A model generated the notes under the pieces. The model had not been told where the DNA came from. It made no database searches and worked only from the letters and a program-made list of their open reading frames with translations. DNA of 64,000 nt from Nitrosomonas ureae. GTDB taxonomy: Bacteria > Pseudomonadota > Gammaproteobacteria > Burkholderiales > Nitrosomonadaceae. The first letter of the stretch is position 1; each line of letters opens with the position of its first letter. Positions 31,546-34,426 of the stretch are shown piece after piece. A program made the position numbers and the translations under genes. The stretch covers positions 3,596-67,595 of the forward strand of contig CAMCBD010000004.1 of the NCBI GenBank assembly GCA_945872825.1, given 5' to 3'.

Positions 31546-33115
31546 CAGCCTGGAATGAAATCAGAGATCGCGCGCTGGCGTTTTCCAGAGAATGGGCCAG
31601 TGCAGAATCGGAAGATGCGGAAGCCAAGCCATTCTGGATCGAGTTTTTTCATGTGTTTGGCATCAGCCCCCGGCGCATTGGCGGTTTTGAACAAAAAGTC
31701 AAAAAACTGGGTGACAGAGATGGCTATATTGATTGGCTATGGAAAGGCAACCTGCTGATCGAACATAAGTCGCGCGGCAAGGATTTGGATCGCGCCTACC
31801 AGCAAGCCATTGATTATTTCCCCGACCTGAAAGAACATGAACTGCCGCGCTTTGTTCTAGTCAGCGATTTTTCGCGCTTTCGCTTGTATGACGCGATAGA
31901 AGGCACGCAAACCGAATTCCTGCTGAAAGATTTTCATAAATTCGTCAAACTGTTCTGGTTCATCGCCGGTTATCAACCGCAAAAAATTTCCGCGCAAAGC
32001 CCGGTCAATGCCAAAGCGGTGCAGCGCATGGCCAAACTGCACGACCGCTTGAAACAGATTGGCTATGGAAGAAATAAACCTCGTGATCTGGAAGTTTATC
32101 TGGTGCGCCTGCTGTTCTGTCTGTTCGCCGAAGATACCGGCATTTTCGAGCGCACGCAGTTTACCGAATTCATCGAGCAGAAAACACGTGAAGATGGCAG
32201 CGATCTGGCGTCGCAGCTTTCACAATTGTTTGAAATCCTGAATACGCCGGAAACTGCGCGGCTAAAAAACCTGGATGACACCCTGGCGCATTTTCCGTAT
32301 ATCAACGGAAAACTATTTGAAGAACACCTGCCGTTCGCCAGTTTCGACAGCGACATGCGCACCGCGCTGTTGTTTTGCTGCGCACTGGATTGGAGCGGCA
32401 TTTCTCCGGCGATTTTCGGTTCCTTGTTCCAAAATATTATGGACGAAACCCCGAACGCACGGCGCAATCTCGGCGCGCATTACACCACCGAGGAAAACAT
32501 TCTCAAGCTGATCCGCCCGCTGTTTCTCGACGAACTGCACACTGAGTTCGACAAAATCAAAAACAACACCAAGTGCCTGCAAGTCTTTCATAGCAAACTG
32601 GCCAATCTGAAATTTCTCGACCCGGCGTGCGGCTGCGGCAATTTCCTCGTCATCGCCTACCGCGAACTGTGCCAGCTTGAACTCAAAGTACTGCGAACAC
32701 TGCACGACAGCGGCCAGCAAATGCTGGATATCACCAGCATTATTCAGGTCGATGTCGATCAGTTCCACGGCATCGAAATCGAAGAATCTCCGGTACAAAT
32801 CGCACAGGTGGCCTTGTGGCTCACCGACCACCAGATGAACGCGCAAGTCTCGGAAGAATTCGGCCAATACTTCGTCCACCTGCCACGCGCACATCGTACA
32901 TGGCAATGCATTACGGCTGGATTGGAATACTGTTATTCCGGCGGCGCAATGCAGTTTTGTGATGGGGAATCCGCCGTTTATTGGCGCAAAATTTATGAGC
33001 GAAGCACAACGCGCCGACGTAACCACTATTTTTCACGATATTCACGATACCAAAAACGCCGGGTTGCTGGATTATGTGGCTTGTTGGTATCGCAAGGCCA
33101 CGGAATACATGGCAC

Positions 33116-33220
33116 AAATCCCCCTCGATCCCCCTTTTACAAAGGGGAAAGTGGAGAGTGACCACTTGAACGCACACACCTCGATTCCCACCTTTGCAAA
33201 AGGGGGGCCAGGGGGGATTT
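33116..33220. repeat. 105-bp palindromic element inserted in frame in the RM gene
   Basis: AAATCCCCC...GGGGGGATTT ends with internal CCCCTTT/AAAGGGG hairpins; length divisible by 3. Confidence 0.8.
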
Positions 33221-34096
33221 CAGCGGCCTTCGTCTCCACCAACTCCATCACCCAGGGCGAGCAAGTCGGCGTGCTGTGGCCGGACTTGCTCCGGCACGGC
33301 GTGCAACTTCATTTTGCCCACCGCACGTTTCAGTGGATGAACGAAGCCAAAGGCAAAGCCGCGGTGCATTGCGTCATTATTGGTTTTGGTTTGCAGGAAG
33401 CTGCGCACAAAATCATTTTTGAATATGCCGATATTCAAGGCAAACCACACGCAATTCCAGCGAATAACATCAATCCCTATTTGGTGGATGCCCCAAACGT
33501 AGTACTGGAGAACCGCACCTATCCAATTTGCGATGTGCCGAAAATGATCAACGGTAGCAAACCCGCTGACGGTGGCAACTTGCTATTGAGTGACGAAGAA
33601 AAGCATGAATTATTAATAGCCGAGCCTCAAGCTGAAAAGTGGATTCGTCCATTCATCGGAGCCGATGAATTTATCAATAATATTCCACGCTGGTGCTTGT
33701 GGCTGGTTGATATTTCACCTGCGGAGCTACGTACCATGCCACAAATAATGCAACGCGTAGAAGCCGTAAGAACTATGCGCCTTGCCAGCAAGGATGCACA
33801 AACAATAAAAGACGCAGTTACACCTACCCTATTTCAGAAAATTCGCCAACCGACAGAACCCTACTTACTTGTTCCCAGTGTTTCTTCCGAGAATAGACTG
33901 TATGTGCCAATTGGATATTTGCTGCCAGAAGTCATTGTCAGTAATTTAGTATATTCCATTCCCAACGCTACCCTCTATCACTTCGGCATCCTCACTTCCA
34001 CCATGCACAATGCCTGGATGCGTACCGTATGTGGAAGATTAAAAAGCGATTACCGCTATTCCGTTGGCATTGTGTACAACAACTTCCCCTGGCCTG

Positions 34097-34144
34097 AAAT
34101 CCCCCCTTTGACAAAGGGGGGAGGTGCGCAGCACGGGGGGATTT
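34097..34144. repeat. 48-bp palindromic element inserted in frame in the RM gene
   Basis: AAATCCCCCCTTTGACAAAGGGGGG...GGGGGGATTT; length divisible by 3. Confidence 0.8.
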
Positions 34145-34426
34145 CCGCCATCGAAACCGCCGCCCAGGCAGTGCTGGATGCCCGTGCCCAGTTTCCTGAT
34201 TCGACCCTGGCCGATTTGTACGATCCGCTGGCGATGCCGCCGGAATTGGTTCACGTGCATCAGGCTCTGGATCGTGCCGTGGATGCGGCATATGGCAAGA
34301 AGAATTTCGCTTCCGAAGCGGAACGTGTGGCTTTTTTGTTTGAGCGTTATCAAGCCATTACCAGTCTGCTGCCTGCTGTTTCAGCTAAAAAAACGAAAAA
34401 GCCGCAATCATCCTGAGAAGCCACCC

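Follow-up and report, generated by a model that had tools for sequence, protein, structure and literature searches.

In-frame hairpin repeats in two loops of an MmeI-family restriction-modification pseudogene of Nitrosomonas

Among the described short repeats, those closest to the elements treated here are the Rickettsia palindromic elements (RPEs), reportedly described by Ogata et al. in 2000, the repetitive extragenic palindromes (REPs) of the REPIN/RAYT systems, reportedly treated by Nunvar et al. in 2010 and by Bertels and Rainey in 2011, and the miniature inverted-repeat transposable elements (MITEs), for example the Correia and Nezha elements. A survey of intragenic REPs with GTAG and CGTC tags (Di Nocera, De Gregorio and Rocco, 2013; PMC3733652) places them chiefly in genes of replication and repair; it also describes RPEs, and its text never uses the word "restriction". 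We have analysed 64,000 nucleotides of a Nitrosomonas ureae contig (CAMCBD010000004.1, positions 3,596 to 67,595; the whole stretch is called here the window), in which two hairpin-forming repeats of one family are read in frame within a gene of an MmeI-family restriction-modification enzyme. With a probability of roughly 0.8, we take them to be decayed copies of a mini-element that were tolerated in two loops of the enzyme and imported with a gene that later died.

Two repeats and their host gene

The features on which the argument depends are the following (handles such as L015, P0002 or G043 are our own, for loci, proteins and genomes, respectively).

33116-33220, no strand assigned: repeat copy 1, 105 bp, absent from the syntenic ortholog L015 and present in L013
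33116-33124, left tag of copy 1; 33130-33147, its left hairpin, followed by the core; 33187-33207, its right hairpin; 33211-33220, its right tag
34097-34144, no strand assigned: repeat copy 2, 48 bp, absent from L013 and L015, with the same insert in P0002
34097-34121, fused tag and hairpin of copy 2, followed by a 13-nt spacer; 34135-34144, its right tag
31548-34416, plus strand: host of both repeats, an MmeI-family (type IIL/IIG) restriction-modification pseudogene with five MmeI Pfam domains and a match to 5HR4
32885-32887, plus strand: site of an 11-bp deletion, from the DNA alignment of the window with L013 and L015

A preliminary description, made from the window alone, had placed two palindromic repeats of one family at 33116-33220 and 34097-34144, and this is where we find them. 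The general layout of the family is a tag (AAATCCCCCC), one or two C6T3-loop-A3G6 hairpins and a second tag (GGGGGGATTT). Copy 1 runs AAATCCCCC-TCGA-[CCCCCTTTTACAAAGGGG]...[CCCACCTTTGCAAAAGGGGGG]-CCA-GGGGGGATTT, that is, the tag AAATCCCCC, a spacer of 4-5 nt, the hairpin CCCCCTTTT-ACA-AAGGGG and a 39-nt core, followed by the hairpin CCCACCTTT-GC-AAAAGGGGGG, CCA and the tag GGGGGGATTT. Copy 2 is shorter, AAATCCCCCCTTTGACAAAGGGGGG-AGGTGCGCAGCAC-GGGGGGATTT, where AAATCCCCCCTTTGACAAAGGGGGG is the left tag fused to a single hairpin. Within the window, the 9-mer GGGGGATTT is confined to the four repeat ends, with four occurrences against 0.49 expected, and the paired tag pattern is expected 0.00 times; the two copies are thus not due to chance. 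Folded as single-stranded DNA, copy 1 (105 nt) forms one long hairpin of -27.4 kcal/mol (z = -5.3) and copy 2 (48 nt) reaches -13.4 kcal/mol (z = -3.3). The hairpins of the window copies are decaying (GGGGA, CCCACC), and copy 2 is 9 bp shorter than the form found in relatives (IPPNPPLAKGGGAQRGGI; carried at this site by P0011, P0016, P0019, P0023 and P0034), a loss that is likely to stem from slippage between two C6 runs. A known RNA family was discarded as the identity of the repeat, since Rfam gave no family above threshold, only sub-threshold look-alikes of microRNA precursors.

As the preliminary description had noted, both lengths are multiples of three and both repeats are translated, being read through in the frame of the C-terminal open reading frame (ORF) 32959-34416. 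Copy 1 yields the peptide IPLDPPFTKGK...FAKGGPGGI (in full IPLDPPFTKGKVESDHLNAHTSIPTFAKGGPGGI) and copy 2 yields IPPLTKGGGAQHGGI. The sizes given there, 105 and 48 bp, hold as lengths of the elements and do not hold as net gain, which amounts to 90 and 27 bp (30 and 9 codons) relative to empty alleles.

MmeI enzymes comprise an N-terminal nuclease (MmeI_N), a helicase-like spacer, a gamma-class N6-adenine methyltransferase, a target recognition domain (TRD) and a C-terminal domain. All of these are recognisable in the host gene, which matches Pfam MmeI_N, MmeI_hel, MmeI_Mtase, MmeI_TRD and MmeI_C (E = 1e-27 to 1e-79) and, in its C-terminal half, the sequence of the MmeI crystal structure 5HR4 (E = 1e-136). 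Its translations include the methyltransferase motif IV GNPPF, of which G3, N4, P5, P6 and F7 are invariant in our homolog alignment A1, and the D...E-x-K motif of the nuclease, DWLWKGNLLIEHK. The best homologs come from Nitrosomonas, and the DnaB encoded in the window shares a 90%-identity cluster with a protein of Nitrosomonas sp., in agreement with the origin of the genome. What the gene lacks is the single intact ORF of about 920 aa typical of the family. Following 32885, an 11-bp stretch is missing, which reads CTGGCCAAATC in L013 and has a diverged 11-bp counterpart in L015; the deletion moves the frame from 31653-32885 to 32887-34413 and thereby leaves two overlapping ORFs, 31653-33161 and 32959-34416. 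At the 5' end, the homology of L013 and L015 to the window begins only at 31548, the ATG region of the relatives (ATGGCACTGGCC...) having been replaced, and there is no in-frame ATG, GTG or TTG upstream of the GTG at 31653. Judged from these alignments, the gene is now a pseudogene by loss of its start codon and by the deletion; both lesions lie upstream of both repeats.

In order to separate insertion from ancestral sequence we have aligned 120 homologs (58-88% identity). They were picked by 5-residue words shared with the insert-containing query, so the inserts of this family may be over-represented among them, not those of other families. The most prevalent linkers are ACWYRKATDFIAAHPAIRVAFVSTNSI at site 1 (the position of copy 1) and FPWPEPTDTQRKTIETAAQ at site 2 (that of copy 2). 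Site 1 is empty in 74 of the homologs; the inserted peptides are therefore not ancestral, the outcome that would have refuted the preliminary description. The syntenic ortholog (L015/P0003), preceded like the window gene by a 2-hydroxyacid dehydrogenase gene, has neither insert and keeps AAHPAIRV and EPTDTQRQT as its native linkers; in P0001/L013 (88% identical) only insert 1 is found; and P0002, an intact allele of 959 aa, has both, its site 2 peptide being identical to that of the window. The alignments thus confirm that the copies are inserts rather than ancestral linkers, placed, as had been proposed, where related enzymes have short linkers. By the L013/L015 alignment, the element ends overlap or replace 15-25 bp of the native linker. 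The assembly that holds L015 (GCA_015075655.1, JABTTY010000003.1) is labelled as candidate division WWE3; its gene order and 77% protein identity fit the Nitrosomonas locus, which casts doubt on the label or the binning.

Site 1 lies between MmeI residues 525 and 530 (about 526-529), in a loop inside the methyltransferase domain and ahead of the AFVSTNSI strand, and splits the Pfam MmeI_Mtase match into two stretches. Site 2, at residues ~822-829, is the junction of the TRD and the C-terminal domain. The mapping on an AlphaFold model suggested in the preliminary description was made with AlphaFold2 for the 485-aa ORF and an alignment of 50 sequences (mean predicted local distance difference test score, pLDDT, 76.8). 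Residues 59-84 (insert 1) and 385-392 (insert 2) have pLDDT <50 and are nearly all coil, and most of the TRD and the C-terminal domain exceeds 90. Both inserts are accordingly placed by the model in disordered loops.

The gene had also been said to have carried its inserts while under selection. This is borne out by the intact five-domain alleles that carry them and by the ratio of nonsynonymous to synonymous substitution rates (dN/dS) between the window gene and L013, 0.155 at dS = 0.27; since insert 1 is present in both genes, purifying selection acted while it was there. Relative to L015 the ratio is 0.068. Inside insert 1 it is ~2.3, computed over 35 codons only, which suggests that the insert itself is under little constraint at the protein level.

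Two loops, many repeat families and competing readings

The two sites are not reserved for this family. At least 6 extra residues are found at site 1 in 46 of the 120 homologs, at site 2 in 35 and at both in 23, and a scan of the whole 920-aa protein revealed elsewhere only minor sites, near residues 85 and 269. The family of the window accounts for at least 15 of the inserts at site 1 and at least 11 at site 2. Altogether the inserts at the two loops derive from about ten different hairpin-repeat families, the others contributing peptides typical of G+C-rich palindromes, such as SPFKGE...PLEREG, SPFQGEGWDGG...LPLHGGGN, VRAEPFDLAQDRPVEA...SGRTG, SRDPQGRGDP...IASAAPRND, HSRAGGNPA...LDSRLRGNDG and PSPQPSPLKGEGA, among others. 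The largest case is P0092 (1112 aa), with a 209-aa in-frame insert at site 1 that contains an endonuclease domain of the DUF559 (PF04480)/MTES_1575 type; the hairpin-type peptides on its two sides belong to another repeat family (LPSPASGRGAGGEG...PLAGEGS). P0094 has what appears to be a short remnant of this insert (LPSPASGRSRV). The two loops are general landing pads for many repeat families. At these positions the protein accommodates 10-200 extra residues, a property of use in the engineering of these programmable enzymes, and much of the length variation among annotated MmeI homologs is repeat-derived.

We propose the following history. The repeats would be decayed copies of a mostly non-coding, hairpin-forming mini-element, which in an earlier host would have landed in two surface loops of an MmeI-family enzyme. 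Only stop-free insertions that kept the frame in permissive loops would have survived selection, and as a result of this filter the repeats would have come to be translated as disordered linkers (PPFxKGG...KGGxGGI), the enzyme staying functional with its inserts. Homologous recombination would have shuffled alleles with and without each insert and the gene would have moved between genomes, until this Nitrosomonas genome, in which the element is not active, received an allele carrying both. The death of the gene, through loss of the 5' end and the 11-bp deletion, would have come afterwards.

Several points weigh against this history. The filled/empty comparison (L013, L015) has no visible target-site duplication; by the alignments, the boundaries of insertion do not appear fixable and a simple cut-and-paste insertion is not demonstrated. 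A more distant clade (P0059, P0062, P0107 and others) has this repeat family at both sites too, which would imply either repeated hits at one site, a hint of targeting, or very old inserts with many losses. Finally, the order of events, the insertion mechanism and the arrival by horizontal transfer are matters that we infer, the last from distribution only.

The hint of targeting leads to the first alternative, in which a nuclease-driven process would aim hairpin elements at precisely these two loops, for example by homing of a DUF559 cassette with later loss of its ORF. The occupancy described above, 46 and 35 of 120 homologs filled at exactly these sites by some ten families with little elsewhere, speaks for such a process, and so does a whole DUF559 domain in frame at site 1 with hairpin peptides around it (P0092). 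Moreover, the native DNA of site 1 (CATCC|GGCGATCC) resembles the element tags, and modules of the window's family bracket DUF559 genes (see below). However, unrelated repeat families sharing the same loops fit structural permissiveness better than the specificity of one nuclease, members of the family in other proteins likewise lie at, or close to, inter-domain linkers whose sequences are unrelated, and DUF559 is not known to cleave or home. We consider targeted integration unlikely.

A second alternative arises from the comparison of alleles. The window allele is ~95% identical to P0002 except for TRD residues 600-780, where a sliding window gives 45-62%, clear evidence at the level of sequence for a swap of the TRD. 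Relative to P0001 it is ~97% identical except for residues 391-480 and 781-840 (81-87%); the second of these diverged patches surrounds site 2, and the first is upstream of site 1. The alleles of this gene are thus recombinant mosaics, and recombination between them explains why each insert can be present or absent without the other. The TRD is flanked by the two sites, and in a type I operon of the same genome (described below) copies flank TRD1 of hsdS, so that the repeats could be seen as an adaptive device, either portable homology or hairpin sites for TRD swapping or mRNA hairpins that tune expression. We find this very improbable: the observed swap has its breakpoints near residues 580 and 775, within conserved protein-coding sequence and 40-80 residues inward of the repeats (489-523 and 816-831); most homologs, some with different TRDs, have no inserts; and the hairpins of the window copies are decaying. 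The repeats as recombination breakpoints for TRD swapping were rejected as a main explanation, the breakpoints lying elsewhere.

That there was no insertion at all, the peptides being ancestral low-complexity linkers of this enzyme lineage with a convergent likeness at the DNA level, is next to impossible despite similar peptides at the same positions in some distant homologs, given the short native linkers of the syntenic ortholog and of most homologs and a 30-nt module that recurs in intergenic DNA of many phyla, with no hit for a reversed-pattern control.

The repeat family in Nitrosomonas and in other phyla

The genome from which the window comes (G000; 2.76 Mb, 45% G+C, 151 contigs) has about seven copies of the family, two of them in the MmeI-family gene, four in a type I operon on contig C55 and one on contig C41. 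None is in a housekeeping gene; all are in or beside restriction or defence-type genes.

G000:C55:1688-8177 (L247): type I restriction operon hsdR-hsdM-DUF559-hsdS, with four copies or half-copies of the repeat
G000:C41:6416-7551 (L248): decayed AAA/STAND-type NTPase gene, with a 95-bp repeat copy that breaks the frame

On C55 the copies occupy the hsdR linker between Helicase_C and EcoEI_R_C, the end of hsdM (a half-module), the DUF559/hsdS junction and the centre of hsdS. The last one, of 193 bp, splits hsdS into two ORFs with one Methylase_S domain each, which could represent a dead gene or two half-S subunits. Two other genomes (G013 and G022) have the same type I operon with the same insert spacing. 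A Thiolinea homolog of the C41 NTPase (L106:3975-6815; a TIR/SEFIR domain and the same P-loop region) has a copy at a different position; the C41-type NTPase is one more gene of defence type that travels with the repeat.

Beyond this genome, the module was found in 9 of 61 related genomes, 6 of them among the 37 of the genus, and the reversed-pattern control gave no hits everywhere. Seven low-copy loci fetched from six genomes (five of the genus plus G054) were without exception inside restriction or methylase genes: the central region of HsdS, HsdR, the HsdM linker after YHAWR, site 2 of MmeI and an N6_N4 methylase. Module-rich genomes belong to other families of the same order (69 module hits in G053, 34 in G043). 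The tabulation of copies by location and length that the preliminary description had called for gave, for G043, 13 of 14 elements in intergenic DNA, with lengths of 89-193 bp and no bias to multiples of three; the lone intragenic copy is in HsdM. The flanks of these 14 copies have no consistent target-site duplication.

From these counts the family is not proliferating or active in the Nitrosomonas genome of the window. With about seven copies and none in housekeeping genes, the inserts most likely arrived with the gene, and the window copies are probably relics imported with it.

A scan of one genome per species yielded at least 120 stretches with the module. Those listed come from Desulfobacterota, Nitrospirota, Chloroflexota, Omnitrophota, Patescibacteria, Ignavibacteria, Cyanobacteria, Gamma- and Betaproteobacteria, Bacteroidota, Myxococcota and others. 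The claim of a separate selfish palindrome family with further copies is therefore well supported, within the genome, in its relatives and across phyla. We have analysed further 80 of these loci (0.54 Mb), which hold 89 elements, ~54 without a spanning ORF, 15 at contig ends and 20 within a spanning ORF. The hosts that were checked are diverse and the copy lies mostly between Pfam domains. In-frame copies were located between Radical_SAM_N2 and Radical_SAM, at CbiG/TP_methylase linkers, between the DPBB and SPOR domains of RlpA and between the GT4-N and GT1 domains of a glycosyltransferase; the copy in RecJ is inside the DHH domain, and that of a hybrid histidine kinase follows the receiver domain. 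The hosts further include a TIR-STAND NTPase that is a relative of the C41 gene. An element restricted to restriction genes was rejected, given the in-frame copies in radical SAM, CbiG, RecJ, RlpA, glycosyltransferase and histidine-kinase genes and the fact that most copies are intergenic. The bias towards restriction genes in Nitrosomonas is most readily accounted for by such genes being those that come from outside and move between genomes; the finding that in non-native genomes the copies are confined to restriction or defence genes suggests that such genes ferry selfish repeats between lineages.

A candidate partner gene and comparison with described repeats

The preliminary description had proposed to look for a linked mobiliser with the same ends. 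Nothing of the kind is at the window locus; a candidate bracketed by modules does exist elsewhere. The obvious choice, a RAYT, was rejected: there were 40 Y1_Tnp matches in six genomes (G000, G013, G022, G043, G053 and G054), and no module lies within ±1.5 kb of the ten best Y1_Tnp loci among them. The candidate is DUF559, a very large uncharacterised nuclease family with a Vsr fold, which to our knowledge is not a known transposase.

The sole DUF559 gene of G000 is the one on C55 between hsdM and hsdS, with modules on its flanks. In G053 (beside imuB/dnaE2) and in G043 (next to an enoyl-CoA hydratase-like gene, as read from the ORF sequence) a complete element directly follows the 3' end of the DUF559 ORF. 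A home-made DUF559 hidden Markov model, with a background of 9 matches in about 20.6 Mb, found four DUF559 ORFs in the 80 cross-phylum loci against about 0.24 expected, and modules directly abut three of the four, in L126 (Omnitrophota), L097 (Thalassocella) and L071 (Dehalococcoidia). The motifs QFYRQKP...DGSQH are common to all nine module-associated DUF559 proteins. Three others, with KFRRQ(H/Y)P...DGGQH, have other hairpins on their flanks or none of the module type. Two of these, at L039:1429-1859 (G043:C15) and L044 (G054:C19), are bracketed by different short palindromes (CCCCTTCAAGGGG, peptides PSPxxGEG), and L038 (G054:C12) has no hairpin of the type searched, only palindrome-like peptides in the tail of the ORF. 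There is here a hint that each DUF559 nuclease subfamily has its own hairpin family.

We have then examined 80 metagenomic loci encoding DUF559 of the QFYRQKP type. A full module is within 160 bp of DUF559 in 59 of them and a hairpin in 66. Most of the modules agree in orientation, with hairpin-tag upstream of the ORF and tag-hairpin downstream of it. Gaps were measured in 17 loci that have a module at either end; between module and ORF match the median is 19 bp both upstream and downstream. The result is a compact unit of 421-457 bp (~440 bp), [C6T3-loop-A3G6 hairpin-N3-GGGGGATTT]-~20 bp-DUF559-~19 bp-[AAATCCCCCC-N3-hairpin]. Farther out, a partner half-module occurs upstream in only 11 of 31 evaluable cases and downstream in only 13 of 27. 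In this cassette the tags face the ORF, whereas in the window elements they are outermost. Compact units were found in several phyla:

L126:779-1214, compact DUF559 unit
L097:586-1420, compact DUF559 unit
L178, L201, L205, L213 and others, compact DUF559 units

Two elements of G043, L018:2992-3080 (89 bp) and L027:2984-3108 (125 bp), have the inverse arrangement hairpin-tag...tag-hairpin, the layout expected of a DUF559 cassette minus its ORF, and each is preceded by a shared motif, GAGAGAAAGTCT or a near match to it.

The link between module and DUF559 is strong, an association only, and the movement of repeats by DUF559 would be a candidate role. One may go further and suppose, tentatively and with the odds rather against it, that the QFYRQKP-type DUF559 (Vsr-fold) is the cognate enzyme that mobilises or maintains the hairpin family, that the compact unit [hairpin-GGGGGATTT]-DUF559-[AAATCCCCCC-hairpin] is the autonomous form, that the window elements are its ORF-less relatives and that restriction-modification loops serve as vehicles between phyla. 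At the least, the oriented pairing of module and DUF559 provides a concrete functional hypothesis for DUF559, and it could explain how hairpin repeats without a RAYT have spread.

How do these elements compare with the systems mentioned at the outset? The MITEs share with them the format, a non-coding element of 50-190 bp with terminal inverted repeats of ~30 bp and a longer, ORF-bearing relative that has the same modules. They differ in that no target-site duplication was seen here, in that the ORF-bearing relative has no recognised transposase and in the polarity of the tags, which point inward in the cassette (hairpin-tag ORF tag-hairpin) and are outermost in the window.

With REPs and REPINs there is in common a tagged hairpin unit whose inverted pairs fold into one long hairpin: copy 1 folds end to end, and modules are paired 60-190 bp apart in G043 and G053, as in the inverted doublets of REPINs. 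The copies are likewise mostly intergenic, with occasional in-frame ones that encode 10-35 residues, and the same repeat flanks a small nuclease-type gene. However, the tags GGGGGATTT/AAATCCCCC (AAATCCCCCC and GGGGGGATTT in all copies examined) are not GTAG or CGTC, and among the best loci of the six genomes there is no module-flanked Y1 transposase (RAYT), the flanked gene being instead the Vsr-fold DUF559 endonuclease. By its different tag and by the lack of a module-flanked RAYT, the family falls outside REP/RAYT. REP families are, besides, usually narrower in range than the many phyla over which this family is spread.

In its behaviour the family is generally like the RPEs, which are also short palindromic repeats inserted in frame in genes and translated as extra surface peptides, with hosts under selection and with intergenic copies too. 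The likeness is one of behaviour only (in-frame insertion, intact alleles, dN/dS 0.155), not of family membership. The window family spans many free-living phyla rather than Rickettsia, most of its copies are intergenic, in the Nitrosomonas genomes examined its intragenic copies are confined to horizontally mobile restriction or defence genes, and its modules also bracket a DUF559 gene. In the literature searched we found no prior description of DUF559 as a repeat-associated gene or of repeat hot spots in MmeI-family loops. What the window holds is a known kind of event, an in-frame palindromic insert, in a new repeat family with a new DUF559 association and, if the partnership of DUF559 with the repeat is true, it would represent a second, mechanistically different analogue of REP/RAYT.

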